A DNA stretch of 62,476 nt, filler included, from Stramenopiles sp. TOSAG23-6 (Eukaryota), in NCBI GenBank assembly GCA_900128565.1. It is 30 parts of 30 records of this genome, joined end to end, with 100 filler letters (N's around TTAATTAATTAA, not from the genome) between each part and the next. Parts side by side here need not be neighbours in the genome. Positions count along the whole stretch, not along the records: positions 33,525 to 35,509 come from LT638401.1; 29 more parts are not named here. One strand, 5' to 3'. Positions 6,374 to 62,424 of the stretch are shown here, piece after piece (position 1 is the stretch's first letter; each line of letters starts with the position of its first letter). Under the pieces are notes generated by a model. It was given only the letters and a program-made list of their open reading frames with translations, had not been told where the DNA came from and made no database searches. The position numbers and the translations under genes are program-made.

Positions 6374-8205
6374 GGTAGTGTAATGAAAGACGTAGTTTTA
6401 GAAGGTAAACTAAAGGGAACTCCTGATGTTTTGTCGTCTATAAGCGATTCCACAAATCTTGAAATAGAATCCTGTCAAGTACGTTTTCATCATGAAAATT
6501 TAATTTTTTTTTTTTTGGTAAAAAAAATTTCGTACCTAACAATTTTTTTTTTACCGAAAAAAAAAAACAAAAAAAAAATATTTTTTCACAATACAATCTT
6601 CATCTGAAAATAAAAGTCATTCTATTGTCAATGATAAAAAATCTTCTTCTGATACAGTAATTTGTGATACTAAAAGTCGCCGAGTAAAACGTTCGTGTGT
6701 CTCTAATGCTGAAGCTGGACGACTAGCGCTTGCGAAGGCCAAAGCTATGATGCCTAAAGTAGAGCCTCGTATGTTTTTATTTTCATTCCAAAAACATTTT
6801 TTCAATTTTTTTTTATAGTACATTTTGTACCTAAGAAAAAATCAAATTTTCGAAATATTTTTTACGATACATGTAGTTCAAAGGCTCAACGTTTAGTGGA
6901 TGCGAGAAAAGCTGATATTACTACATCTTGGAAACATTACAAAAATAGGTTTTTAGAAATTTCAAATAATCGGAAATTCAAATGTACGTTTTTTTCATTA
7001 ATTTCAAATTTATTTATTTTTTTTTGAAAAGTTTGTACCTAACGATTTTTTTTTTACGAAAAAAAAAAAAAATATTTTTTCACAATACATACACTCCTCT
7101 TGGTAATAGTTATCCCTCATCTTTACGTTCTATGGGACAGTGGCAACGGATGAATGTGTTTCGAATCGAATTGGCAGCAATGCAATATCAACTTTGCTCT
7201 ATTGGAGCTCCGGCTGCAAGTTATTTGCCGTCTTTAGAAGAAAATACTACTTCAAACATTTCTGAAAACCCTAACCCTAATCAAAACAAAAATGCTTCTG
7301 AAGACGAAGAAGCAGTTGAAAAGTCATGGAAAAAATTTCATTTATTTATGAATAAATGCAGTACGTGGCGAGATATTTTACCTATGCTTGAAGAATTAGA
7401 GATGAGTGCTGTGAAATTCTCAGGGGAAAATGAATTGGATGTATGTTTTATTTTCTTTCAAATTCGAATTTTTTTTTCATACGAAATTTTGTACCTAACA
7501 AATTTTTTAAGATTTTTTTTTGAAATATTTTTCCAAAATACATTCTGATAGTCTTGGTGAATTACCTTTGAATGTTAGTCTTTCTATAATGTATGTTTTC
7601 ATTTGAATTAATTTTTTTTTTAGTTTTTCGTACGAAATTTTGTACCTAGCGATTTTTTTTTAAATTTTCGTACATCGTAAAAACTCGTAAAAAATAATAT
7701 GTACCTAACAAATAAATTTTTCTAAAGTAAAACATTTGCACAATACATTTCTGATTTAAGTAAGAATGGTCCAATTTTAGATCTGGAGGATGACGACGCT
7801 GAAGAATTAGAAGCACAAGGCTCATTATCAAATCAAGTAAGTCTAGGCTATGGTTTTGGATTTGGGTATGGCTGTGGCCCTTATTCTCAAGACTGGCAGA
7901 GTGTTCAGGGTATTCGTATCCCTCCTCCAAATGTTCCATCTTCTCAAATCGTCTGTGACTTTCCCCGTTTATGGCGAACACGTAGAGATCGACAGCGTTG
8001 GTGGGCATTTCTTCAATTAGGAAGGAAAAACACAAATGGTGCCGCATATGCTCTTTTTTGTCTAACATCGGCAATTACCCGGTATATTCAAGCTTTGTCG
8101 CACTACCGTCATCAGAAAGGTTTAGAGGAAAATAGTATAGTAACATATAAAAGTGATAAAAGTCGTGGTCTAATCCGAAAAAGATCTACGAAGACACTGG
8201 ATTAT
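6374..8205 (+). CDS. Multi-exon nuclear protein fragment, possibly WHIM/DDT-type chromatin protein (exons 6374-6478, 6597-6768, 6873-6983, 7091-7440, 7544-7590, 7749-8205)
   Basis: Six exons join in frame when five non-AG introns (1 GT-AA, 4 GT-AT) are removed. LWRTRRDRQRWWAFLQ...AAYALFCL is WHIM3-like (tentative). Confidence 0.6.
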
Positions 8206-16974: not shown

Positions 16975-18690
16975 TGTCTTTACATTTTTTGATTGTCTGT
17001 CAATGGCTCAAGATATGAATACAGCCCAAAGAAAAATGGGTTCTCATGTTCGTTACCCGGGTCACGCTAGTCGAATTGCTCTAACATTAAATATTTTATT
17101 GTCAAATACAATTGCAATGATTTCATCATCATGTACGTTTTTTTTTTTTTTTTTTTTTCGGTAAAAAAAACGAATTTATTTTTTTCGTACGAAATTTTGT
17201 ACCTAACAATTTTTTTTTTTTTTTTTTTCGGTAAAAAAAAAATCGAATTTTTTTTTTATAGTAAATTTTGTACCTAACAATTTTTTTTAGATTTTTTTTT
17301 AAATATGTTTCCAAAATACATTTGCTATTTCGTTTATTAAAAATATTGAATATATTGCTAATGATATTGATGAAGAAAAAACACGAAATCAAGACGACAT
17401 GCAAAACAATGCAGATAATGTGTTGTATGTTGAATGTAGTAATACACTTACATCATATTGTTATAGAGAATTAACGTATAGAAAAAAAATGATGATGTCT
17501 CATAACCCTAACCCTAACCCTAAGAAAAATAAAAAAATTAAAAAAATTTCGACTGTACCAAAACAACAAATGAAAAAATTGAATTCACGAAATCGTAATC
17601 TTAAAAAGTCGGTGAATTCTGAGGTTAAAAAAAAAGAAACAGAAAAGTGGTGTCGAATTCAAATCTGGAAACATGAAATAGAGATAAACCAAAAACAACA
17701 AAAACAACAAAAACAACAAAAACAACAACAAAAACAACAAAACAAAAAAAACAAAAAAAAACAATCAAAAAAAGGAAAAAAAAAATCTCGAAATTCTTTA
17801 GGTACAGAATTTACTACAAAAAAATATTTTTCAAAATATTCTACCGTCAACGATTCAATTTGGTACAATATTGATTCATGTATACGGAATTTCCTAGATG
17901 GTATCTATAAAAGAAATGGTGCTCAAGGCTGGGGAATTGGCCGAGGTGGTTTTTTTGGAGGTAGTGTATGTTGTAGTATAATATTTCAATTTTTTTTTTC
18001 ATTTTTTTTTTGTATGAAATTTTTTTTAGAAAATCAAAAATTTCATTTTTTTTTTTTCAATTTTTTTTTGTATGAAATGTTGTACCTAAACAAAAATTTC
18101 ATTTTTTTTTTTCAATTTTTTTTTGTATGAAATTTTGTACCTAACATTTATCTACAATTTCAAATAGTATCCTAATAATTTATGTCGCCACGTTTGACTT
18201 ACCGATTTCGTGTAAAATTGGTAATCATAAATTGTATAATTTTGACAAAGCTGCTATACAATACGCAAATAGTACTATCAGTTGTCCTAACCCTAACCCT
18301 ACTCAAAAAGACCAACTGCAATATACCTCCGAAAGTAATGCAAAACAACTTTTTAATGTCATATGTTCACCAATTTGGGACTATAACGTATTATTTCATT
18401 ATTCATTTCCAATATTACAATTTTTTTTTTTTTTTTTTTTTTCATACGAAATTTTGTACTTAACAAAAAAAAAATTAAAAAAAAAAAAATATTTTTCACA
18501 ATTTATGCTCGTGAAAAAGGACGAAATCTTTGTTTTGCATATAAACGTTTAGAGTATTCAGAAACTGCATTACAATATAGTTTTTATATTCCTCTTCATC
18601 GTAATTTGGCACATGCGTTAAAATCCTTGTTATGTCGATGCAAAAACGAAAAATATGCGACTTTTATGATTCGTCATTTATCAAGAGTTT
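16975..18690 (+). CDS. Hypothetical multi-exon protein fragment
   Basis: Coding-like segments between family introns; no domain recognised. Confidence 0.4.
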
Positions 18691-24298: not shown

Positions 24299-24992
24299 AT
24301 GGGGGCCGCTGCGTCAATTAGCCATTTTGAAAAAGAAACACTTCTAGAATTACCTGAAATACTTCGTTCGAAGCAACGTGTATCAAATTTACCCGTCAAG
24401 ACATTAAAAACTCTTTTACATGTAGCATCAGCTAATACTAGCAATTGTATTGAAAAAAAAGATCTTGTTGCTCTTCTGCTAAATACAGAAATACAATTAC
24501 AGCTTTTATGTAGACTTGAAGAATTACAAAAATATAAAAAAAACACAAAAAACACTTTAGAAACACCCATCAATATTGCTCTACAGAATGCAAGTAGACG
24601 ATATGAAAATACTCCAAGGACTCCAGAACCATATTCAATTATTCCAAAACAATACAAAAACACACAAAAGCCATTTGCAAGGAGACCAGAACCATACTCG
24701 AAAATATATCATCCAAGTACGTTTGTATTATTAATTTCGCAAAAAATATTTTTTATACGAAATTTCGTACCTAACGATTTTTTTTACACCAAAAAAAAAA
24801 AAATATTTTTTCCAATACATGTAATAGTAACTCTATAGTGAATCTTCGTACCTCTACTTGTTGTAGTTGTCAATTACCAATTACTTGTACAATAATAACT
24901 GCATTAAATAAAAAGTGGCATAAGCAATGCTTTCGATGTGATAATTGCTCTATATTATTAGGAGAAACTTTTTACCAGCATGAAAATTTACC
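24299..24992 (+). CDS. LIM-domain protein with N-terminal helix-extension-helix (CIEKKDLV) module (exons 24299-24716, 24821-24992)
   Basis: CCSCQLPI...ALNKKWHKQCFRCDNC...FYQHENLP; GT-AT intron 24717-24820. Confidence 0.8.
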
Positions 24993-26084: not shown

Positions 26085-27161
26085 ATGGGTTGTTTTTGGG
26101 GCAAGTCAATAAAGAATGCATCTGTAGCAGCCTCAAGTAGATGTAAAACACTTCAAGATGTTGCATCTTTTATTATTGCTGGTAAAGTAAAGAACATTGT
26201 TTGGTTGTCTGGGGCTGGAATATCAGCATCAGCAGGTATTCCTGATTTTAGAACACCTGGAACAGGTCTGTATGATAATTTATCCAAGTATAATTTGCCA
26301 TATCCTGAAGCAGTTTTTGATTTGGCATTTTTTAAAAAAAATCCACTTCCATTTTATAGACTGTCACGAGAACTCTTACCAGGGTCATACCAACCAACAC
26401 TAACACATACATTTATTCAACTTTTATATAAGAAAAATATTCTACTACGCTCTTGGACACAAAATATTGATGGATTGGAAAGGGTTGTAGGCATTCCAGA
26501 AAAAAAACTTGTGGAAGCTCATGGAACATTTGCTACATCCCGTTGTATTTCGTGTATGTTTTTTTTTTTTTGAAAAAATATATTTTTTTTCATAGCAAAT
26601 TTTGTACCTAAACAAAAAATATTTTTTTTTTTTTTTTGAAAAATATTTTTTTTTTCATAGCAAATTTTGTACCTAAACTAAAAAGATTTTTTTTTTTTTT
26701 TTATATTTTCAAAAAATACATGTGGGACAAAATATCCATCTGATAGAATGAAGCGTTATATTTTATCTTTACGTAGTGAAACGTCAACAGTTCCTCAATG
26801 TAAGTCTTGTAGAGGCCTACCAAAGCCTGATATTGTTTTTTTTGGTGAATCTTTGCCAAAAAAGTTTTATAAAAATCAAAAAGATTTTGAAAAGTGTGAT
26901 TTATTAATTGTAGCAGGTACATCACTTGAAGTTCAACCCTTCTGTTCTTTACCTGGAAAAGTGAAAAATTCAGTTCCTCGTTTGTTAATGTACGTATTCA
27001 TCGTTAGGGTTAGGGTTATATGTCCATTTTTTTTTTATTTTATTTTATTTTTTTTTTTTTTGAATGTACCTTTCATACTAAAAAAAAAAAAAAAACAAAA
27101 ACAAAAAAATTAATTTTTTTTTTGTATTACATATTTTTTACACAACAGTAATAGAGAATTA
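26085..27161 (+). CDS. SIRT2: NAD-dependent deacetylase, class I sirtuin (SIRT2-like); exons 26085-26553, 26722-26989, 27149-
   Basis: [24 protein letters not shown], CxxC/Cxx[19 protein letters not shown], and PRLLINRE after splicing. Confidence 0.92.
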
Positions 27162-28470: not shown

Positions 28471-29251
28471 TAGGGTTTTGGTGATGCAGTTGTTGTTGCA
28501 GCTGTTGGTGTTGGCGTTAGTGCTGGTGTTAGCAATGCAGTTGTTGGTGATGGCGTTGGTGATGCCGTTGGTGATGCAGTTGGTAATGGTGTTGGTGATG
28601 CCGTTGGTGATGCAGTTGGTAATGCAGTTGTTGTTGCAGCTGTTGGTGTTGCCGTTAGTGCTGGTGTTAGCAATGCAGTTGTTGGTGATGGCGTTGGTGA
28701 TGCCGTTGGTGATGCAGTTGGTAATGGTGTTGGTGATGCCGTTGGTGATGCAGTTGGTAATGCAGTTGTTGTTGCAGCTGTTGGTGTTGCCGTTAGTGCT
28801 GGTGTTAGCAATGCAGTTGTTGGTGATGGCGTTGGTGATGCCGTTGGTGATGCAGTTGGTAATGGTGTTGGTGATGCCGTTGGTGATGCAGTTGGTAATG
28901 CAGTTGTTGTTGCAGCTGTTGGTGTTGCCGTTAGTGCTGGTGTTAGCAATGCAGTTGTTGGTGATGGCGTTGGTGATGCCGTTGGTGATGCAGTTGGTAA
29001 TGGTGTTGGTGATGCCGTTGGTGATGCAGCTGTTGGTGTTGCCATTAGTGCTGGTGTTAGCAATGCAGTTGTTGGTGCAGCTGTTGGTGTTGCAGTTAGT
29101 GCAGCAGTTGGTGCGGCTGTTGGTGATGCAGTTGTTGGTGTGCCTATTGGTGCTGGTGATGCAGTTGGTGGCAGCTGTTGGTGTTGCCGTTGGTGATGCA
29201 GTTGTTAGCGCTGCAGTTGGTGTTGCCGTTGGTGTTGGTGTTCTAGGTTGT
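28470..29251 (-). repeat. Pro/Thr/Ala mucin-like coding repeat, 138-nt (46-aa) unit about 4 times
   Basis: [46 protein letters not shown] repeated. Confidence 0.8.
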
Positions 29252-29634
29252 NNNNNNNNNNNNNNNNNNNNNNNNNNNNNNNNNNNNNNNNNNNNTTAAT
29301 TAATTAANNNNNNNNNNNNNNNNNNNNNNNNNNNNNNNNNNNNNNNNNNNNATAGGAAATTTTGTACCTAACGGTTTTTCACTAACTTTTTCACTTTTTT
29401 TTTATATTGTACACAAGTCATCATATATCTTTGTGTTCAATTGAATCTCAAGAGGATAGAAATTTATGTTTTGTATCGACAGAAAATATTCAAAAACCTA
29501 ATCCGACACCTAGAACAATTATCCAGTTATATTTCAAGAATCAGAAAGACTTCACTTCATGCTCTCCACAAGAGTACCTATTCATTATTCATCACTGTCG
29601 ACAAAGTTTTTTTACGCCAATTAAATTGCAAATA

Positions 29635-31248
29635 ATGAGTTCTGATGATATATCAGCTGTGTATCACAACAAAACCCATGAAGAATGTGTTCCTACCCCG
29701 GCAGAGCTCGCGATGAAGAATGGCTCTGGTATTGGTGACATGGAAGACATGGTAAATGGCCTTGACCTAGGCCCTGACGTTAGTCGTGGTTCTCGCCCAC
29801 CAATGGTACTCAATCGCGTTGTTTCCAAGCGACGTGCACAACGTAGAAAAAACAGTAATAATAGGGAAGTAGAATCAAAAAATAACGAAAATGTATCTGA
29901 ATTATCTAATTTGGAGTCTCCAGTGAAAAGTGAAAAAACCTCGGTTATACCCGGAACTCAATCAATCTGGGTAAAGACGTATGGTTGTTCCCATAACATC
30001 AGTGACAGTGAATACATGTCAGGAATGCTTGATTCTTATGGATATCGTATCGTTGAAGATAAAAGCTCTGCAGATCTTTGGCTTATTAATAGCTGTACTG
30101 TAAAGGATCCTTCGGAAAGCGCTTTTGTTAATTTAGTGGAAAGAGGAGCTAAACTAAACAAGGGTGTTGTTGTGGCAGGTTGTGTACCCCAAGGTGATGA
30201 AAATGTACGAGGTCTTGAAGATGTCAGTGTTGTTGGTGTTAGCCAAATTGATCGGGTGGTGGAAGTTGTTGAAGAAACTTTAAAAGGTAATACTGTCCGC
30301 CTGCTCGCGAAGAAGTCACTTCCCCGCCTCGATTTACCAAAAATTCGTCGTGATAATCTCATTGAAATTATTCCCTTATCAACTGGTTGTCTCGGTGCAT
30401 GTACATACTGCAAAACAAAACATGCTCGTGGAGTATTAGGTTCTTACACAATTGAAACTATTGTTAATCGGGCTCGTGTGGCTATTGATGAAGGTGTTGG
30501 TGAAATATGGCTTTCATCTGAAGATACTGGTGCATATGTATGTGTTCAACCCTAACCACTAGTACCCCTAACCACTTCAAATTTCGATTTTTTTTTTTTT
30601 CAAAATCATGTCTCTAACGAGTTTTATTTGAGTTGAAATATGTTCCAAAATTACATGGTCGTGATATTGGAACAAGTCTTCCTTCGCTACTTAATGCACT
30701 CATCGAACTCCTACCTATTGGAGGAAATACGATGCTCAGAGTTGGAATGACAAATGTATGTTTTATTTTTTTTTTGTTTTCGAAAAAAAAAAAATCGAAT
30801 TTATTTTTCGTACGAAATTTTGTACCTAACAAATTTTCTAAATTTTTTTGAAATATTTTTCCAAAATGCATCCGCCTTTTATTCTTGATCATTTAGATGA
30901 AATTGCGGACGCTTTAAATCATCCTCAAGTATTTTCATTTCTTCATGTTCCTGTCCAATCTGCTAGCGATAATGTTCTTCGTGGGATGAATCGTGAATAT
31001 ACAAGAGATGAGTTTTGTCGCGTTGTAGACTTTTTACGCCGACGGGTCCCGGGTATCGTCATTGCGACAGATATTATTTGTGGCTTTCCTGGAGAGACGG
31101 ATGTTGATTGGTTAGATACACTCAGACTTGTTAAGCGATATGAGTTTCCTATATTAAACATCTCACAATTTTATCCACGACCAGGAACGCCAGCCGCTCG
31201 AATGAAGCGCGTGAGAACTCAATTAGTCAAAGCGCGATCTCGAGAATT
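29635..31248 (+). CDS. CDKAL1: tRNA methylthiotransferase CDKAL1; exons 29635-30537, 30657-30755, 30872-31248
   Basis: TYGCSHN, radical-SAM [54 protein letters not shown]. Confidence 0.95.
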
Positions 31249-31493
31249 GTACGTTTCATTATGATTTTTTTTTTCTTTTTTTTTTTTTTCATAGTAAATT
31301 TTATACCTAACAAAAAAAAATTTTTTCAAAAAAAAAAAANNNNNNNNNNNNNNNNNNNNNNNNNNNNNNNNNNNNNNNNNNNNTTAATTAATTAANNNNN
31401 NNNNNNNNNNNNNNNNNNNNNNNNNNNNNNNNNNNNNNNGGTACAAAATTTCGTACGAAAAAAAAATTCATACAAAAAAAAAATAAAACATAC

Positions 31494-32390
31494 ATATTTT
31501 TCCACGGACGATAAATTTCCCATTTCTTCATTCCATCCTCCTAGCACATATAAACTAGGGTTACTTTCTCTCGCCAACAGTAATTTCCACGACTCCTTAC
31601 GCCAAGGTACCATGCGGTGATCTCGCTGTACATGTGAATATCTTTCCATTTGTAATTTTGCCACTAGTACAGCAGCTCCTTCTTCAGTAAGGCATCTATT
31701 AGTAGGTGTAAATACTGTTTTTCTCCAGAAACTACAAGTACCTTCAAGACAACCAATATCAGCTGATATTAATCCCGAATTAGCAATAATATATAATAGC
31801 ATTTCATTGGGTAATCTATGAAATGCTCCAGCTCGGTGCACAACAACATCGTCTTTATACAGTTCCATTGATAAAGAACGTGCGCGACGGCGCTGCAACC
31901 TCACGGCCTTTTTAGCTTCTTTTTTATCTAATTTACGAGCTTCCGCTCTTGCTTTTGCTTTGGCTTGCGACTTAGAAACAGCAGTAAGACTATGGTCTTG
32001 ATAAAATCTCATATTACCGCTATTATCATCATACTCAAAGTCGTCTAAAAGCTCCAACTTTTTTGCAACTCGGCTGTTTGCCTTTTTGTGGGAATGACAT
32101 CTCTTTCTACTGGATTTTGAACTACCAGGTGGGCTACTATATGGGGAGCGACATGCAGGGGAATTTGATCTTCTAGAACTATGATACTTTCTTGAATTGG
32201 GGGGAGAACGAGGACTGTTGTAGTCGACGTGGGAGTACTTGTCTCTTTGTGTAGGAGTATCAGAACCATTTTCTTCGTTCTCATTGCGACTTCGTCGTCG
32301 ACCACTTGGAATATATCCTTTCCCTCGATTCTTTCGTCTTTCAGGCTTCTTACTTCCATCCGAATGCTTACCTTTACCATGTTTACCCAT
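31494..32390 (-). CDS. F-box-like/Kelch-repeat protein, first exon
   Basis: FHRLPNEMLLYII (F-box-like) and LYVLGGWNEEMGNLSSVEKY (Kelch), then a GTATGTTTT donor. Confidence 0.7.
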
Positions 32391-32863
32391 TGTATAATAT
32401 TCAATGAAATTTATCTAATCAATCTAAGAGTATCTTACCGTCTCAAAAACGTTTCTATTTTTTGAATTTTTTCAGCATCGGAACGATCGGTTCCCGAAAA
32501 GGAGAGATGTATGTGGCGTGAAAGCGGAAAGCAGGTTTGTTCATGATGTCATGTTTTTGTTCCTCCGTTTCGGTTGACGTTTGAGTTGACCAATATAAAA
32601 CAACATAATTATTACCCCAAGTTGACCGGGTCTCTCTTCCTCTCTCTTTCTTTCTTTGATTTAGATAGGCTTTCAAATGATTCAAATTGCGAGACATTTT
32701 GTTCTTCTCAATGTTTCACTTCGACTTTGCCGAGTGCGTTCAAGGTACCAGAAGGGGCAGAAAATAAAGATTGTTGTATTAAAAAAAGTTCACACATCAA
32801 TAGTTCGTGCAACTATAGGAATAATAATACAAACGATATTTATAATTTTAAATTTGATGTTGA

Positions 32864-33370
32864 TTATCTTGAAGAATTTGTTTCACCTGGTAATGGGTGA
32901 ATATATACACCAGCATCAGCGTACATTAGGTTATAATCTGTTATTTCATTTTGAGCATAATATGAACAATCGCCACGTGTACCTAAACTTCCTTTGCCAT
33001 CACCCATTGCAAAACCTTCAAAACATTTGCACCGTCCCGAAGTAAAATCACAATGCCCTCTACCAGAGCATTCTATATCCTCCTTCGTGCCCATGACGGT
33101 CTCAGCTATAGCTATAGAAGATGTACCACCCGTAAGAGACGTACTATCAACAGTTAAAGGTGAAATGTTTCCAGGATTAGTCACAAAACTGATAGTAAGT
33201 ATTGCATTATTGGCACTATCGCATATACCTAATTCCTTGTAAAGGATACTGTCATTACTAAGGGTTTCAAGAATACCTGAACTAAACGTGAGTGAAGTAA
33301 CTCCAGGGCCACTACTCAATGCACCAACAAGACTATATACATTTTCACCCGTAAGAATATACACAGAATC
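32864..33370 (-). CDS. EGF-like domain extracellular protein fragment
   Basis: GTKEDIECSGRGHCDFTSGRCKCFEGF...GTRGDCSY, a type common in stramenopile surface proteins. Confidence 0.75.
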   Translation of the reverse strand, partial: DSVYILTGENVYSLVGALSSGPGVTSLTFSSGILETLSNDSILYKELGICDSANNAILTISFVTNPGNISPLTVDSTSLTGGTSSIAIAETVMGTKEDIECSGRGHCDFTSGRCKCFEGFAMGDGKGSLGTRGDCSYYAQNEITDYNLMYADAGVYIHPLPGETNSSR

Positions 33371-33578
33371 ACGTATTTTGGAAAAATATTTGAAAAAAAA
33401 ATCGTTAGGTACAAAATTTCGTACNNNNNNNNNNNNNNNNNNNNNNNNNNNNNNNNNNNNNNNNNNNNTTAATTAATTAANNNNNNNNNNNNNNNNNNNN
33501 NNNNNNNNNNNNNNNNNNNNNNNNTTGTACCTAACAAATTTTCAAAATTTTTTTTTGAAATATTTTTCCAAAATACAT

Positions 33579-34662
33579 GAGAGCAGCACAACAAAAGCTA
33601 AATGATGGTCTTGAGGCAATGGATGCTTTACGAGCGAGGAGAGCCTTTGAAAAAAAAGACAGAGAAGCAAGAGAAAGTACATTTTTAGTATGAATTTCAT
33701 TTTTTTTTTTTGAAAATTTTGTACCTAACATTTTTAGTATGAATTTCAATTTTTTTTTTTTTTTTAAAATTTTTTTATTTCAAAAAAAAATTTTGAAAAT
33801 TTTTTCCGTACGTAATTTTGTACCTAACAAATTTTTAGTATGAATTTAATTTTTTTTTCACAATACATGGGAATTGCGTGAAGCGAGGGAACGTAAACAG
33901 CGTATAGATGACATGCAAGCAGCAAGAGGCATTCAAGCGTTAGCAGCAGCTCGACGGCAAAAAAGAATTATTCAAGATCAAAGAGAAACATTTCACCGAA
34001 ATTATCAAGCTCAAGCTGAGCAGCGGGAGTATGTTTTTTTTTTTGAAAAAAAAATTTTTTTTTAGAAAAAAAAAAAAAAAAAAAATTTTAAAAAAAATTT
34101 TAAATTTTTTTTTTGGTTTTTTTTTAGTAAATTTTCAAAATACATGCAGATTCGATTAGTGGAAGAAGCAAAACAGAATTTTAGGGAGCAAAATCGTGAT
34201 GATATTCTTGCCCAGGTACAAGAAAAAGAAGAAAAGAGAAAACAAGCTCAAAAACGTTATATGTTCGTTTTATTTTTCTTGAATTTCGAATTTAATTTTT
34301 TTCGTACGAAAATTTGTACCTAACAATTTTTTTTTTATAGAAAATTTTGAAATATTTTCAAAAAATACATCAAGGAGGGGCATGAAAATGTTCGACGACG
34401 TGAGCGAGAACTGGAAGATGTGAATAAAATACAACAACAAAAGATTGAGTTCTTACGCTCTAAAGGTGTTCCAGACGCATACATGTACTTTTTTAATTTT
34501 AATTTTAATTTTTTTTTTTTTTTTTTTTTTTCGTACGAAATTTTGTACCTAACGATTTTTTTTACACTTTGGACATTTTTTTAATTTTACAGGAGTGATA
34601 TAATCAAATATGATGCACAAAAGGTCATGATGGACGACTATAAAAGAGGAGGCAGACGGTAA
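33579..34662 (+). CDS. CFAP45: Cilia- and flagella-associated protein 45, 3' exons (33579-33676, 33869-34028, 34146-34262, 34371-34484, 34593-34662)
   Basis: DALRARRAFE...KEG...KIEFLRSKGVPDAY matches the CFAP45 C-terminus; three GT-AT introns and one GT-AG intron. Confidence 0.8.
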
Positions 34663-35641
34663 TACTATTATATACTTACGAAGATATGTACAAGTTTTAA
34701 AAATCTAAAAATGTTTTGACATTTTTGCAAAAAAAATAAATTTAGATTTTTTTGATTGTAGAATTGCAAAACGTTTTTTTTTTTTTTTTTTTTTTTTCTT
34801 ACGAAATTTTTTACCTAACAAAAAAAATTTTTTTTTTTTTTNNNNNNNNNNNNNNNNNNNNNNNNNNNNNNNNNNNNNNNNNNNNNNNNNNNNNNNNNNN
34901 NNNNNNNNNNNNNNNNNNNNNNNNNNNNNNNNNNNNNNNNNNNNNNNNNNNNNNNNNNNNNNNNNNNNNNNNNNNNNNNNNNNNNNNNNNNNNNNNNNNA
35001 AAAAAAAAAAAAAAAAAAAAAATTTTTTTTTTTTTTTTTTTTTTTTTTCCATAGAATTTTTTTTTAGTCAATAATTTTGAACTCAATATCTTTTTTTTAA
35101 TGACACGTTTATTCTTCACTCTACATGGGGTAAGCTACTCACAGCAGGTGATGGAAAATATGATTCTTAAAAAATATACAATGCAGCATATATAAATTTT
35201 CATTGGCAAAGAAAATTTTTGTTTGAAAATTTTTGAGAATTTTGAGATTTTTGGTGAAATTTCAAATTTTCGTATTTTCATTCTTGTATGAAATGAATAT
35301 CGTTATATTTTATGTATCTATTATATATAAACATATATATAACAAATCTCTCTACATATATATATTTTAATATCATACATTTCATAACGAAAATATTGTA
35401 AACAGATGCAAATGCAAAGAAAAAAAAAATGTTTTTGCTTAGGTACAAAATTTCGTATGAAAAAAAAAAAAAAAAAAAAAAAAACGTTTTGCAATTCTAC
35501 AATCAAAAANNNNNNNNNNNNNNNNNNNNNNNNNNNNNNNNNNNNNNNNNNNNTTAATTAATTAANNNNNNNNNNNNNNNNNNNNNNNNNNNNNNNNNNN
35601 NNNNNNNNNTTTTTTTTTTTTTTTTTTTAAAAAATTTTCCC

Positions 35642-46140: not shown

Positions 46141-47826
46141 CGAACTTTCGATCACATGACTGAAGATAATAAGAATTTGCAGGATCTGCGATATATAATG
46201 CATCAATGAATAAACCTGCTGCACGTACAGCTGCACAACACGAATTCCATTGAAGATTTCCAATATGTTTTGTGAAAAAAATTCTACAATTTTCTTTTTT
46301 TTGTTAGGTACGAAATTTCATAGTAAAATACAAAAAAAAAAAAAAAAAAAAAAAAACCTAAAATTCGTTAGGTACAAAATTTCGTACAAAAAACAACAAA
46401 CACCTTGACCAGCAAATCCAACATAGAGAATATTTGATTGTTTTGATTTGCAAAATCTATCATAAAAATGATCCGTAGCTGCGAAAACTTCTGTGAATAT
46501 TTCTTCCCGTCCTAACCCTAACCCTAACCCTAATGAAGTTTCATTTTTATGTTTGTTTTTTTCTATGCTATTTTGAATACTATAATTTTGATATAAAGTC
46601 TCATTTACATTATTATCCAGGTTTGTTGATGTAGGGTTAGGGTTATTCCATGCAATACCTAGACGTCTTTTGGAGTTTCGTAATGCAGCTTTATGTTCAA
46701 AGATATTTTGTTTTGTTTTTTTTGTAAGTTAGGGTTAGGTTTAAAAAAAATTCAAAAAAAATATTTCATGAAAAAAAATATTTCATGAAAATATATATAT
46801 ATATATATATATAGTAGGGTTAGGTTTTTTTTGGTATATATGTGTGGAAAGAAAACGTACCAGCCTTTTTCATATTAAAATAATTGCAACTCAAACCTAA
46901 ATTTGTTAATTTTGAAAGTTTAGAAAATATTCCATCATTTAATATGTCTATATCTTTTAAAAAATTCATTTGCAAATATAATGATTTAAGTTTCACTAAT
47001 TTTGATAGAGACTGAGGAAGAGCACATAACATATATTGTGAAAAAATATTATTATTATTATTTTTTTTTTTTGGAAAAAAAAAATATTTGTTAGGTACGA
47101 AATTTCGTACGAAAAAAAAAACCGAGTAAAAACATTAAAAAATTCAAAAAAATAAAACATACTGATTATTATGAGCATCGATTTTTTCTAATAAAACACA
47201 ATTTCCAATTTCATTTGGTAATGCCCTAATTAAATTTCCATAAATATGTAATTCACGTAACATTTTTAATTGACCAATTTCAGCAGGTATGTCCTTTAGC
47301 TTATTATCTTCAAGATGTAAAATAGATAAAAGAGTTAATTTTGATATAGAAACATAATTAACAGATGTGTCTAAGCCAACTACTACTGTTGTACTAGGGA
47401 TATTTGAGATTGTAGTGTTGTTTTGATTTTTTTGATTTTTTTGAATTTTTTGAATTTTTTGAATTTTTTGATTTTTTTGATTTTTTTGAATATTTAAATG
47501 TTCAATCTTATTTGATGCTAAATGCAAAACTTTTAATGTTTTTTTCTGATATAATATATTATTTGGTATTTTCTTGAAATTATTCCATGAAGCAAGGAGG
47601 CATTGAACATTATGGCAGTTTTTCAATAATACAAGTATTGTGAAAAAATATTTCAAAAAAAAATCTTAAAAAATTCGTTAGGTACGAAATTTCGTATGAA
47701 ACTAAAAAAAAAAAATTAAATTAGAAATTCATATAAAACATACAAGCGGTGTATCCTGTGCGTTACCTTCCATTTCGAGTACTTTCAAAGAACGTTTTGC
47801 ATAGTACTTTTCTGTTTTGAGAAGAA
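46141..47826 (-). CDS. Multi-exon LRR protein with an additional C-terminal domain
   Basis: LHLEDNKLKDIPAEIGQLKMLRELHIYGN; introns 47633-47743 (GT-TT) and 47031-47162 (GT-AT). Confidence 0.7.
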
Positions 47827-52338: not shown

Positions 52339-54024
52339 ATTACACGAATTCCCGCCTCATTTAAGAACTAGAACATTATTGAATTTACACAAAAGTCTAA
52401 TTTTACAAGTCCCCTTTTTTAATGAGTGTTTGTTTTCATTACTAAAAATGTTTTTTTTTTTTGGTTTTTTATAGTAAATTTTGTACCTAACAATTTTTTT
52501 TTTTTTGGTAAAATTTTTTTTGAAATATATTTTTTTTTCATAGTAAATTTTGTACCTAACAATTTTTTTTTTACAATATTTTTAAACAATGTAGGTGATG
52601 AAAGTTTCATTCGTGAAGTCGTAAATTGTCTTGAATTACAAGTTGCGTTACCTGGTACAACAATTTATAATTGTGGTGAAATTGGAGCAGATATGTAATT
52701 TATAACAAAATTGAATTTACGTTTGATTTTTTTTTTTTTTTTCATAGTAAATTTCATACCTAACAAAAAAAAAATTCAAAAAATGTAAAACAAAATTGAT
52801 TTTTTTTTTTCATACGAAATTTCATACCTAACCAAAACAAAAATTCAAAAATATTGTTTCACACTGAATGTATTTTGTTCAAAATGGATGTGTAAAATTA
52901 TTAGTCGGTCGAGCTCATCAAAATGTATGTTTTATTTTTTCTTTACACAAAAAATTCGATTTTTTTTTTTTGGTTTTATACGAAATTTTTACCTAACAAA
53001 TTTTCAAAAAATTTTTTTGAAATATTTTTCCAAAATACATCGCTCTTCATCACGTAAGCTTAACCCTAACCCTAAACATGATACAACGAATAACACAAAT
53101 GAAGATGAGTCTAGTTATGTGACAAATGAGGATACATCGTCGATTTCTATTGACTCTAGTATGTTTTTTTNAAANTNGAANTTTTTTTTTTTTNGNTTTT
53201 TTATAAAAATTTTGTACCTAACAAAATTATTTTTTTTTTTGAAAATATTTTTCTACAATACAAATTCAGATGATTTGTGGAATGTGAATACAAAAAAAGG
53301 AAATTCGTATCAAGCTCACACAAGTAAAAATAAAACAAATAAACAAAAAGTAAAAAAAGTTAAACGAAAATCGACATTAAATTATAGTACTAGTGTACAT
53401 GCAAAAGACAAAAATGGTACAAACAATAATACGAAAAAAAAAAGATATTCAGAAAAACGAAAACGTCAAAAGTATAAAAAAACAAATGTTTTTAGTGTGT
53501 TACGAGCAGGTGCATGTATGTTTTCAATGTTTTTGTTTCAAAATATGATGTTGCGTGTCTAACAAAAAAAAATTTAAAAAAAAATTTAAAAAAAAAAAAA
53601 AATTTAAAAAAAATTTAAAAAAAAAATTTAAAAAAAAAAACAAATATTTAAAAAAATAATATAACCCTAACCCTAATATACTTTTACAATACATATTTTG
53701 GTGAGGTTGAAGTTCTCCTTCGCAATGTTCGTCGAATTTGTTCTGCAGAAGCAGTCTCAATGACAGAATATTATGTACGTTTTTTTTTTTTAATTTATTT
53801 TTTGTACGAAATTTTGTACCTAACAATTTTATTTTGAAATTTTTTTTTCATACGAAATTTTGTACCTAACAATTTTTTTTTTGAAATTTATTTTTCAAAA
53901 TACATGGAATTCGACAACATCGGTTAAAACATATGCTTTTAAATTTTCCTGAAATTGCAACACAAATGAAATTCGAAGCCTTAACAAAAGTTCGTGATTT
54001 AATACGTTCGATTTATTGGAGAAT
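52339..54024 (+). CDS. Cyclic-nucleotide-binding (CNG/HCN/EAG-type) channel, C-linker and CNBD exons
   Basis: VPFFNE|CDESFIREVV...GEIGAD|MYFVQNG...LRAGA|YFGEVEVL...RRICSAEA; six complete introns (1 AG, 4 AT, 1 AA). Confidence 0.85.
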
Positions 54025-56492: not shown

Positions 56493-58226
56493 GTCAACGT
56501 AGGAAGTCTTTATGGGAAATATATCCACAATATCCTTTATTTTCAAGATTTTCTGAATGGCCAAAACGATCTGTACCTGTAGTAGGTTGTGGTAGTGCCC
56601 CACAGTCACCACCACAGCCACAGCAACTTATATGTAGTGTATGTTTAATTTTTTAATTTTTAAATTTGATTTTTTGTATGAATTTTTTTTTTTTGAAAAT
56701 TTTGTACCTAACAAATTTTTTTTTTATTGTAAATTTTGAAATATTTTTACAAAATACGGGCACCTCAAAAGATTACAAATGCATCGATTGTATGTATTTT
56801 TTGTAATGTCTGTCTTAGTCGTCTAATTACGATTGATTCTAGACGATTAATGTATGTTTTTTTTTTTTTTACAAAAAAATCAATTTTTTTTTTTCATTTT
56901 CAATTTCAATTTTTTTTTTTTTTTTTTTTGAAAATTTTATACTTTACAAAAAAAATAATTTTGAAATATTTTTTCATCTATATGTTCCATTTGATGCTAA
57001 ATTAGTAAATCTTGAAAATCCAAAAAGACTTTTATCTCCATTATTTTGTGTCGAAGCGCAGTGGCATATTGATCCTACGTTACATTCAGTCGATGGAAAA
57101 AGTTATAATAATAAAATTGCTACACGGTGGGTGATTAGCTGTGGTTATTGGGATAATCAATTTAGAGTCACTGAAACAAATTCAGGTAAAGTGGTACAAA
57201 CCTGCTCTGGTCATCGTAATGTAGTATCGTGTGTTGCTTTATCTGAAGATGGTGTTACATTAGTGACTGGTTCCGTTGATGCAAGTGTTATATACGTTTT
57301 AATTCTTGATTTTTTGGAATTAATTATTTGGGTTAGGGTTAGGGTTTGAAATATTTTTTTTTGAAATTTTTTTTTTTGTACCTAACAAAAACAACAAAAA
57401 CAAAAATTTAATATTTTTTTAAATTAAATGATTTGGAGTCCTATTTTAGTTCACTGTGCTGTAGATAATTTGCATAATTTAGTACCAAAAAAACCTAGAA
57501 AAACAATATTTGGACATCATGTACTTTTTCAATTAATCCTAACCCTAATTCTGTGTCGATATTTTTTTTCGTAGTAAATTTCGTACTTAACAAAAAAAAC
57601 AAAAAAATTTACTAAAAAAAAATATTTTCCTATACTACATGTAATGGTCAATTGTTGTGCAGTCAATGCACAATTAGGTATTGTCATTAGTGCAGATGAT
57701 GCTGGTGTAATTTTAATTCATAGACTTGAAAGTGCGATTTATATAAGAACAATTTTATGTTCAAAACCATGTACGTCTTCAATTTCAATTTCAATTTCAA
57801 TTTCGATTTTTTTTTTTTTTTTTTCGTAGATAATTTTGTACCTAACGATTTTAGTTTTTTTTTTTTTGAAAATATTTTCCAAAAATATATATTTATCTTC
57901 ATCGATTGGAGTGAAAACAGATTATACCATGAATAGTAATTCTGAATACTTACTATCACCTGCCTCTACTACATTTACTAGTCCAATCCGAACATCTTCG
58001 ATTTATACGTCATATAAAACTCAAAACAAAATAAATCAAATACCTATAGCTGTACATTGGATTAATATATCTCCAAATGGATATCTTGTTGCTTACTCTG
58101 GCGATAATTGCTCTCTCACAACGCATTCAATAAATGGTAAAAAATTAAAATATATAGAATTAAATGAACATTTGAATGCTTTACAACTGACAACAGATGG
58201 TCAAATGCTTCTCACAGGAGGGACAA
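56493..58226 (+). CDS. BEACH-protein (neurobeachin/NBEAL-type) C-terminal WD40 region
   Basis: ISCGYWDNQFRV...GHRNVVSCVALSEDGVTLVTGSVDASV|MIW...FGH...LGIVISADDAG. Confidence 0.75.
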
Positions 58227-61076: not shown

Positions 61077-62424
61077 ATGGATTTTTATGACGTAATTTTG
61101 TTCTTGGTATCTACTAAAGGGTATCAAACACTTACTATAATTCTATTGTGTGTAGCATATGTTATTTTTACTTTGAATCGTAGAGAAGATGCGAAGTTGC
61201 TAAAGGCTGAGCTGGCCTTGGAGAAAGTAGCAAGAGCAACATTGGCTTCTTCTGTACGTAATGACCTTGTTGACAGTAAACACGAGTACACCAAAGACGA
61301 AGAAGATAATGATATTGTCATCATTAGTAAATGTGACATAAATGATAAAAGTCAGTCATGTTTACAATCTGAACAAATAAAAGTGTGTCGCTCTTCCCTT
61401 TTTGCTCCCTTGTCGCGTAGAAAGGTGGTTGTACCAACTGATTTTGGTAATATTACAGTCGATATCGTTGGTAATCCTTCGACAGCGTCTCGTCGTTTCT
61501 TGGCGTACCATGATATTGGTATGAATGGTGAAAGTTGTTTTAACTCTTTTATCCAAGTATCTCATGGTGACGCGAGGTTCAGCTCGGGGGGAATTTGTTT
61601 CTATCTAGTAAATGCTCCTGGTCATGAAAAGGGTGCAACTACACAAAATGATAATTATCTATATCCTACTATTCCACAGTTGTCCTTACAACTAAAGCAA
61701 ATTTGCAAGACATTGAAAACGGGGCGTGTAATAGGATTAGGCGTCGGAATTGGCTCTCGTATTCTCTTAGAACTTGCGACAAGAGTAAGTCTGTCATCAA
61801 TTATTTCAAATTGTTTTTTACTCTATTTCGTACCTAACAGGTTTTTTTTACTGATTTTACACAACCCAGGATGAATATTCAGATGAGTGCGTTCCCAGTA
61901 TTTTTTCTGGTTTGATCATAGTTGGGCCAACACAGACCAAAGCTGGATATATGGAAAAGATAAGTAATTTCATCATTTCAAAACTTTTGCGAATATTTGG
62001 TCATGGCTATTTAACTACAACTAAAACAAATTCTGCGTTAGAAAAAGAATCATCAGTGCAATTGACAGAGAGTAGAAAAAGTCGTAGTTGGTTCGATGAA
62101 TTTATTTCACGACAACATTTTAGTCCAAGAGCAATGATGTATGTTTTATTTTTTTTCAATTTCGAATTTATTTTCATACGAAATTTTGTACCTAACAATT
62201 TTTAGTTTTTTTTTTTTGAAATATTTTTCCAAAATACAAAAGACAAACAGAATTAATTAATGACATGTGTGAAGCTGCAAAATCTATTCCATCAGTAAAT
62301 ATTTCTGGTTTTATTGAAACTTCTTATTGTAGAATGGATCTGTCGCCACAACAAAAATCAAGATTAAGAAAATTACGGCTCATGTGTATTGTTGGTACAC
62401 ATACAAATAACTTACGATGTCGAT
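61077..62424 (+). CDS. NDRG-family alpha/beta hydrolase with N-terminal TM segment
   Basis: LAYHDIGMNGESCFNSF, VNAPGHEKGA, YPTIPQL, VIGLGVGIGS; introns 61785-61869 (GT-AG) and one starting at 62139. Confidence 0.85.

Follow-up and report, generated by a model that had tools for sequence, protein, structure and literature searches.

The AG that closes introns is among the most constant signals of eukaryotic genes and, to our knowledge, it has been abandoned on a large scale in very few lineages, namely Fritillaria, Amoebophrya and euglenozoans. In Fritillaria, AT is the commonest 3′ end, terminating 44% of the introns of F. pellucida and 34% of those of F. borealis (Soo et al., 2026; PMC13326754). 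The Fritillaria introns are closed by Y-A-Y, which often also precedes the donor, keep a T-rich tract, undergo U2-type removal and derive from inverted-repeat elements with target duplications (PMC13326754, PMC11282704). Genomes in which most introns are non-canonical are also known from Amoebophrya and diplonemids (PMC7789003, PMC12621601). In the case of Amoebophrya, over 60% of the introns are non-canonical, there is no preferred dinucleotide pair, and a repeated subset carries inverted repeats as well as direct repeats of 3–5 bases that span the intron boundaries, in a GC-rich genome with the telomere repeat TTTAGGG (Farhat et al., 2021; PMC7789003). The described families of introners, that is, intron-generating mobile elements, are of the GY-AG type, as recorded in a survey that began from annotated introns and in which GC and GA donors are the sole rare variants reported (Gozashti et al., 2022; PMC9860276). 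Here, we analyse a stretch of 62,476 bases (hereafter, the window) from the uncultured protist Stramenopiles sp. TOSAG23-6 (assembly GCA_900128565.1), in which the introns of the gene CFAP45 and of many unrelated genes are copies of one element of ~100 bases and mostly end in AT. We put at roughly 0.8 the probability that these are genuine spliceosomal introns, most likely of the U2 type, that were born from an element resembling introners and miniature inverted-repeat transposable elements (MITE), and in which AT is accepted as the 3′ end.

The window joins 30 separate, unrelated parts (contigs), ordered by decreasing length from 2,003 to 1,964 bases, with filler (N44-TTAATTAATTAA-N44) recurring about every 2.1 kb between them, across which distances and neighbourhoods are meaningless. 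Its DNA is AT-rich, with a G+C content of 20–43% per 2 kb. The CFAP45 introns lie on contig 16 (33525–35509, including a gap of 158 Ns at 34842–34999). Single exons of this gene yielded no match in a word-indexed search, exons A–D found none among solved structures, and exon A alone matched the Pfam family TPH weakly (E 0.017); a Pfam match to Pex14_N obtained with single exons was discarded as stray. In a library of 1.8 billion proteins, however, exon B alone matched three proteins at 67–69% identity, including P0251 (496 residues; 69% identity, E 4.9e-10), which over its whole length matches the FAP45/CFAP45 chains of solved axonemes (E 4e-39) as well as Pfam TPH (E 5e-43), bearing out the assignment made in a preliminary description of this DNA. 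When the exons are joined at the junctions proposed there, the product aligns with residues 312–495 of P0251 (184 residues) at 68% identity without a single gap (E 8e-86), and with P0250 at 65% identity, equally without gaps.

According to that description, introns 1–3 begin with GT and end in TACAT, whereas intron 4 runs from GT to TACAG, and all of these letters and coordinates proved correct. RNA supports the same boundaries. Part of 29352–35509 is represented in five seawater metatranscriptome runs (polyA or total RNA) that belong to three studies, and four of these runs (X1–X4), recorded as PolyA RNA-Seq libraries, were aligned to contig 16. The joint 33676|33869 across intron 1, present in X2 record 11 and X3 record 16, has one base of slack and can be read only as GT..AT or TA..TG; the joint 34028|34146 across intron 2, in X1 record 4 and X3 record 17, permits the same two readings; and the joint 34260|34369 across intron 3, in X3 record 19, has two bases of slack and can be read as AT..AC, TG..CA or GT..AT. 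GT-AT is the sole boundary reading that fits all three joints, and the exon-joining contigs at AT ends come from two studies. An AT-AC reading of the AT introns was considered and rejected, since it needs an exon ending in AT, which is the case for only 14 of the 23 AT introns catalogued below, and is contradicted by the joints of introns 1 and 2. At intron 4, X3 record 19 skips 108 bases, placed at 34479|34588, where TACA fits on both sides and leaves the register unfixed by RNA; there, the codon formed at the GT-AG junction is a Met shared by P0251 and P0250, which supports the GT-AG register.

The CAG that lies 4 nucleotides downstream of the end of intron 2 had been predicted to be ignored, on the grounds that its use would shift the frame. 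Indeed, cutting there moves the frame by 4 and brings up a TAG three codons on, and both RNA contigs that cross the site, from X1 and X3, skip the CAG, evidence that leaves room for its minor use. The sequences TACAT-GCAG at 34145, TACAT-GTAG at 6872 and TACAT-GTAATAG at 24820, to which the same description drew attention, read as it gave them. RNA cover has holes in X1, X2 and X4 over 34396–34529 and 34597–34797, and in all runs over 34061–34127, from which no inference is drawn. Summed contig depth on the element amounts to 500 to 29,000, compared with about 1–6 on the exons. The stretch 33525–33578 at the start of contig 16 recurs in RNA contigs of many other loci, with divergence and loose ends setting in at 33578–33580, at the last bases of that intron. 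Further along the contig, the same loose exon letters stand upstream of the acceptor at 35126 in X2, X3 and X4, and the upstream exon belonging to this acceptor is absent from the window.

Homologous proteins fix further junctions in two unrelated genes. Five proteins align on either side of the first CDKAL1 intron, with a tblastn overlap of one residue at the junction, and the intron of the sirtuin gene at 26554–26721 is placed by homologues in which a conserved Cys-Gly junction is kept; the second sirtuin intron ends in AG. In total, five GT-AT junctions and one acceptor are confirmed at the exact base by RNA or homologues, and all eight junctions fixed in either way begin with GT. The EukProt protein P0130 (source name GSMAST32.ASY1.ANO1.1082.1) matches the sirtuin exon at 100% identity, and its public coding sequence (26085–27065, + strand) is mis-spliced: residues derived from the intron at 26554–26721 replace a conserved stretch, and the model also reads on into the intron at 26990–27148. 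Thus, at least for this gene, the annotation was unaware of the GT-AT rule.

Table 1. Positions, in window coordinates, of the CFAP45 locus and of other features mentioned in the text
Feature	Position	Strand	Evidence and remarks
Preceding intron, 3′ part (contig begins within)	33525–33578	+	TACCTAAC box 33528–33535; ends ...TGAAATATTTTTCCAAAATACAT
CFAP45 exon A	33579–33676	+	RNA (X1 record 3, X2 record 11, X3 record 16); gap-free homologue alignment
Intron 1, GT..AT, 192 bases	33677–33868	+	Two TACCTAAC boxes (33722, 33821); RNA joint; in frame
CFAP45 exon B	33869–34028	+	RNA, homologues
Intron 2, GT..AT, 117 bases	34029–34145	+	No TACCTAAC box; RNA joint
CFAP45 exon C	34146–34262	+	RNA, homologues
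Unused CAG just inside exon C	34147–34149	+	Both crossing RNA contigs begin exon C at 34146
Intron 3, GT..AT (AT..AC register also possible), 108 bases	34263–34370	+	TACCTAAC 34317–34324; internal TATAG skipped
CFAP45 exon D, own end TACAT	34371–34484	+	RNA, homologues
Intron 4, GT..AG, 108 bases	34485–34592	+	TACCTAAC 34546–34553; ends TTTTACAG; 108-base RNA skip
CFAP45 last coding exon, TAA stop 34660–34662	34593–34662	+	Sequence, RNA, homologues
Second gene, last exon after acceptor ...CTCTACAT	35119–35303, exon start 35126 (1 base slack)	+	RNA pieces start at 35126 in X1–X4
CDKAL1 intron 1, GT..AT, ends TTACAT	30538–30656	+	P0001, P0003, P0006, P0013, P0062 align either side; in frame
CDKAL1 intron 2, GT..AT, ends ATGCAT	30756–30871	+	Homologues; in frame
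Sirtuin intron, GT..AT	26554–26721	+	Homologues P0132, P0134; conserved Cys-Gly junction kept
AG-ending sibling introns	2539–2711, 26990–27148, 52428–52594, 61785–61869		Coordinate check: flanking frames joined
Telomere-type blocks	7269, 8715, 8996, 9541, 13361, 17506, 27004, 46123, 46516, 53064, 53665, 54051, 54523, 55988, 57333

Across the window, we catalogued 33 introns, which by position comprise 23 GT-AT, 6 GT-AG, 2 GT-AA, 1 GT-TT and 1 GT-GG. AT is thus the majority 3′ end in this sample, and the AG end customary for U2-type introns is found in only 6 of the 33. The donors read GT in all 33, with A at +3 in 31, G at +5 in 28 and T at +6 in 33, a pattern that for most introns was part of the search. 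A CTAA[C/A] box, followed by T-runs, is present in 31 introns, mostly 30–48 bases from the 3′ end (range 7–82), and is a candidate branch site. Reading frames provide a test of the acceptors: when these were picked only by likeness to the element end, the donor was taken as the nearest upstream GTA-type consensus and the longest flanking frames were compared, 20 of 23 pairs joined in frame (p 1.6e-7 against an expectation of 1/3), as opposed to 2 and 1 of the 23 after shifting the acceptor by 1 or 2 bases. All 15 introns checked by coordinate likewise join the longest flanking frames, including the four of CFAP45, the four AG-ending siblings, two with an adjacent AG and five others. Three features were not built into the selection, namely the AT that ends the exon before 17 of the 33 donors, a dinucleotide with a frequency of 10% in the flanking exons (p 3e-9), the C at position −3 in 20 of the 23 AT introns, owing to which they end in CAT where other eukaryotes have CAG, and the presence of unused AGs. 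The last three bases of the AT introns are CAT (20), TAT (2) or AAT (1). In nine of the 23, an AG that lies after the last CTAA[C/A] but before the 3′ end is passed over, and in nine an unused AG follows within 12 bases downstream of that end; because AGs are ignored in both intron and exon, the site appears to be set by context rather than by the first AG. The odd ends (AA at 6596 and 62239, TT at 47633 and GG at 56759) are placed by element position and frame; 6596, 47633 and 56759 have no AT or AG at in-frame offsets from −6 to +6, and at 62239 an in-frame AG three bases further on could serve instead.

These introns are copies of one element of ~100 bases. Its layout consists of GTAYGTTTT, then CGTACGAAATTTTGTACCTAAC, a T-run and the end TTGAAATATTTTTCCAAAATACAT. 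Alignment of all T[AT]CCTAA[AC] sites in the window reveals a conserved block, TTCGTACGAAATTTTGTACCTAAC, followed by the T-run and TTGAAATATTTTTCCAAAATACAT, after which the copies diverge into differing exons; the 5′ ends are conserved too, reading GTATGTTTTATT or GTACRTTTTCAT. Allowing up to two mismatches, there are 21 occurrences of the 23-base motif of the 3′ end, 10 of which have no mismatch, compared with none in 100 shuffles, and GTACCTAAC is found 63 times on both strands together. Element-type introns, with both ends and the core conserved, are present on 20 of the 30 contigs, in unrelated genes, and all catalogued copies are in sense with the gene in which they lie. Of the 33 introns, 17 measure 99–121 bases, indicating that in those the whole intron is the element, and the G+C content of the catalogued introns is 8–30%. 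Longer introns (33677–33868, 26554–26721, 17133–17321, 52428–52594 and 53775–53905) contain two tandem element cores, for instance a 65-base unit repeated 2.2 times at 26559–26702; the element also duplicates or re-inserts within existing introns. The shared architecture and internal motif ascribed to the four CFAP45 introns in the preliminary description hold for introns 1, 3 and 4, whereas intron 2, devoid of the internal GTACCTAAC, looks like a copy with an internal deletion. Many contigs begin or stop inside the element, which is probably why the assembly is broken into pieces of ~2 kb. The element had no match in viral contigs or in JGI metagenome contigs. A search of related DNA with the sirtuin exon returned two loci at 57% identity, in one of which, L001, the frame is open across the intron site, a result of no use for dating the introns.

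The GTATGT donor and the TACCTAAC box resemble the strong U2-type signals of yeasts. In the second step of splicing, the 3′ AG is read through two pairings, that of its A with the branch adenosine and that of its G with the G at intron position 1; if the last base is a T, the contact made by the A would be kept and a G-U type pair could form. We propose that the introns were created by a non-autonomous mobile element of ~100 bases, copies of which are still recognizable, and that each copy would bring along a full set of signals, namely GTAYGTTTT as a donor like that of yeasts, a branch box of the CTAAC type within CGTACGAAATTTTGTACCTAAC, a T-run and the fixed 3′ end ...CCAAAATACAT. The cut would fall after CAT instead of CAG, such that only the last base of the intron departs from the universal rule, and the choice of the 3′ site would depend on the ACA[T/G] end and its distance from the branch. 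Introns that end in ACAG, be they copies or older introns, would be spliced alongside those ending in AT. The AG-ending introns have the same donor type and the CTAAC box and mostly end in ACAG, one base from ACAT, which fits a single machinery accepting ACA[T/G]; that one machinery handles both types, as had been suggested, is therefore plausible. The AT before the donor could stem either from duplication of a 2-base target site or from a preference for certain targets. The last two exon bases equal the last two intron bases in 16 of the 33 introns (AT in 14, AA in one and TT in one), CAT or TAT precedes the donor in 10 of the 23 AT introns, and exon D of CFAP45 ends in TACAT right before the donor GTAC (34485), while in CDKAL1 exon 1 closes with CATAT and GTATGT (30538) follows. 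At such sites, where the exon side can mimic the 3′ end of the element, the duplicated target may have exceeded 2 bases. Under the 2-base duplication, the intron would correspond to the element plus one duplicated copy, and the message would be restored exactly, as in known introners (PMC9860276).

A bolder version of this scheme appears unlikely to us, if worth stating. The 3′ cut would be measured from signals within the element (the branch box, the T-run and ...AATAC plus 2 bases) and the last two letters would be the duplicated target, so that AT, AG, AA, TT and GG all serve, the final G is no longer read and the element is the source of most introns. Should this be true, the element could enter almost any coding site.

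Other explanations account for parts of the same evidence. Minor (U12-type) introns with a loosely read 3′ dinucleotide, as in the expansion seen in Physarum, would be suggested by the match of TACCTAAC to TCCTTAAC at 6 of 8 letters and by the ignored AGs, which recall a distance-measured choice of the 3′ site. Oomycete relatives keep the minor spliceosome, the mere presence of which is thus not deciding. In Physarum, GT-AT belongs to the non-canonical U12-type boundaries that make up 17% of about 1,014 (10.1101/2020.10.12.336362). Nevertheless, none of the 33 donors reads [AG]TATCC, the forms present being GTATGT or GTACGT, and the box typically lies well beyond the distance of about 10–20 bases from the 3′ end that is expected of the TTCCTTRAC box of U12-type introns. 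Both properties favour the major spliceosome and make the minor one a distinctly improbable agent. The possibility that the intron ends are set by pairing of an inverted repeat, with the cut fixed 2 bases past the helix, as proposed for Euglena, diplonemids and Amoebophrya, gains from the ability of GTATGTTTT to pair with AAAATAC, from the finding of at least four end-to-end pairs in the minimum-energy fold of 13 of 29 introns (about 0.2–1.6 in shuffles), and from the three introns that end in AA, TT and GG at the same element position. However, folding is weak, with z above −2 for 22 of the 29, 16 of the 29 have at most one end pair, and in a subfamily that has GTACR as its donor and CACAATACAT as its end the pairing is lost without a compensating change; moreover, the AA, TT and GG cases are assigned from position and frame, not from RNA or homologues. 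On balance, we regard end pairing as improbable.

It could also be argued that the elements are not spliced at all, and that the joined RNA contigs come from strains without the insertions or from excision at the DNA level, in which case the copies seen here would disable their genes or be artefacts of assembly. Splicing as such is beyond what contigs can show, RNA libraries may contain DNA, and the exactness of 10 copies of the 23-base end gives the elements a young appearance. Yet several copies with in-frame stops are present in every gene examined (four within 1.1 kb in CFAP45, two in CDKAL1 and two in the sirtuin gene), a load that would be unbearable for a living cell if unspliced. The uniform sense orientation, the polyA origin recorded for X1–X4 and the base-exact removal at sites without a flanking repeat, as in introns 1 and 2, likewise speak against this explanation, which we consider extremely improbable.

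Several points count against the interpretation that the introns are U2-type products of a mobile element. The donors and acceptors of the catalogue were searched by consensus patterns, which makes the consensus partly circular, and the catalogue favours element-bearing introns, so that 23 of 33 describes a 62-kb sample and is no genome-wide share. Three of the 23 automated donor–acceptor pairs fell out of frame, one of them through a wrong choice of donor for intron 3. Beyond the junctions fixed by RNA or homologues, six more AT introns are placed by the coordinate and frame check and the remaining ones by frame-keeping. The RNA evidence consists of assembled metatranscriptome contigs of depth 2–6, which attest presence, allow for rarer forms, and have no power to yield ratios or to separate strictly a spliced message from that of an intron-less allele. 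As for the signals, intron 2 manages without a CTAAC box, which is hence not indispensable. With regard to mobility, the terminal inverted repeat is short (GTAT...ATAC plus T/A runs), nine of the 23 AT introns lack the 2-base match, and no autonomous form of the element came to light, the 10 long open reading frames scanned containing no transposase. The junctions, the family of repeats, the keeping of the frame and the excess of AT before donors are observed directly; the spliceosome type, the branch site, the mechanism of transposition and the manner in which T is accepted are offered as probable rather than observed.

The sequences also bear on the host. Among named organisms, oomycetes match CDKAL1 exon 1 best, at 72–74% identity, and the source name beginning with GSMAST32 presumably denotes a marine stramenopile (MAST) of the MAST-3 group. 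A tunicate origin, considered for the resemblance of the introns to those of Fritillaria, was rejected on these two grounds, and Amoebophrya was rejected for its GC-rich genome and TTTAGGG telomeres. Contig 20 encodes what we take to be a plant-type leucine-rich repeat protein. A protein atlas returned only ‘dynamin’, with uninformative taxa, and an Rfam scan found no family and no small nuclear RNA (snRNA). Repeats of other kinds are present as well. On contig 0, a single open frame of ~680 residues (3–2051, − strand) is composed of Gly/Ser/Thr-rich units, with tandem open frames of 273 bases (90–91 residues) on the opposite strand; its sole match, to Pfam DUF7524, is weak and below the cut-off (E 1.3e-5). 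A tandem repeat with a 194-base unit in 4.1 copies occupies 37976–38764 on contig 18, and a 138-base repeat in four copies that are 99% alike (28478–29134, contig 13) lies inside an open frame adjoining an ABC-transporter ATPase domain. Telomere-type blocks, (CCCTAA)2–3 or its complement, number 15 (17 matches versus none in shuffles) and usually have TAA just before them; most are located inside long open frames, where they encode NPNPN or, on the other strand, LGLGLG, and the rest lie in introns. A clean adjacent direct repeat flanks one of the 15, block 8996, with 9 bases on both sides.

In the literature that we surveyed, neither a GT-AT intron class nor introners were found for stramenopiles, with the proviso that supplements or Henriet et al. 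(2019) may mention them; the available portions of the MAST genome papers (PMC5778133, PMC12614181, PMC8163842) mention no splice anomaly and refer to splice sites in their methods only. Introns born from introners were already known, as were genomes in which most introns are non-canonical, and it is for the stramenopile case, the GT-AT majority class and the AT-ending introner that we found no precedent. If our interpretation is correct, the change of the 3′ end is linked to a mobile element seen in the very process of generating introns, and acceptance of a last base other than G becomes testable against the splicing factors and snRNAs of stramenopile relatives that use AG. In practical terms, gene models of this abundant uncultured marine group would be wrong wherever a GT-AT intron lies, as is the one public model that we checked, and protein sets and completeness estimates built on GT-AG-only predictors are likely degraded.

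Comparison with the known systems brings out what is shared and what is not. With the rare U12-type GT-AT introns of human and other species (PMC1557818; 10.1101/2020.10.12.336362), the introns described here have in common the terminal dinucleotides and the disregard of nearby AGs; by contrast, those introns possess an [AG]TATCCTT donor and a branch box near the 3′ end and account for less than 1% of introns, whereas here there is no such donor and AT ends form the majority of the sample. Amoebophrya is likewise a marine protist, but in place of its varied termini and GC-rich genome we find one clear rule, GT...CAT, in an AT-rich genome with TTAGGG-type blocks. The introners of Micromonas, Aureococcus, dinoflagellates and others (PMC9860276) are matched by the near-identical introns in unrelated genes, the splice signals borne by the element, the possible signs of a short target duplication and of inverted ends, the aquatic host and introns that are GC-poor relative to exons; the element differs from them in that its own 3′ end is AT and that the putative duplication spans 2 bases as opposed to the cited 3–9. 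The closest parallel is Fritillaria; here, 22 of the 23 AT introns end in YAT and 10 of the 23 have YAT before the donor. Unlike that chordate, however, the host is a stramenopile protist, the introns open with a strong, canonical donor, GTATGT or GTACGT, as opposed to the AG that begins the main classes in Fritillaria, and a single dominant, nearly uniform family takes the place of very diverse termini. Because the encoded proteins are stramenopile-like, as judged from the oomycete matches and the GSMAST32 name, the likeness to Fritillaria would be convergent, and were the final G indeed no longer read, the system would amount to an independent, simpler and more uniform replay of that lineage. 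Collectively, these features suggest a second, unrelated organism with AT as the usual 3′ end of its introns, and a clean system in which the donor is canonical, the introns belong to one family and a single base has changed.

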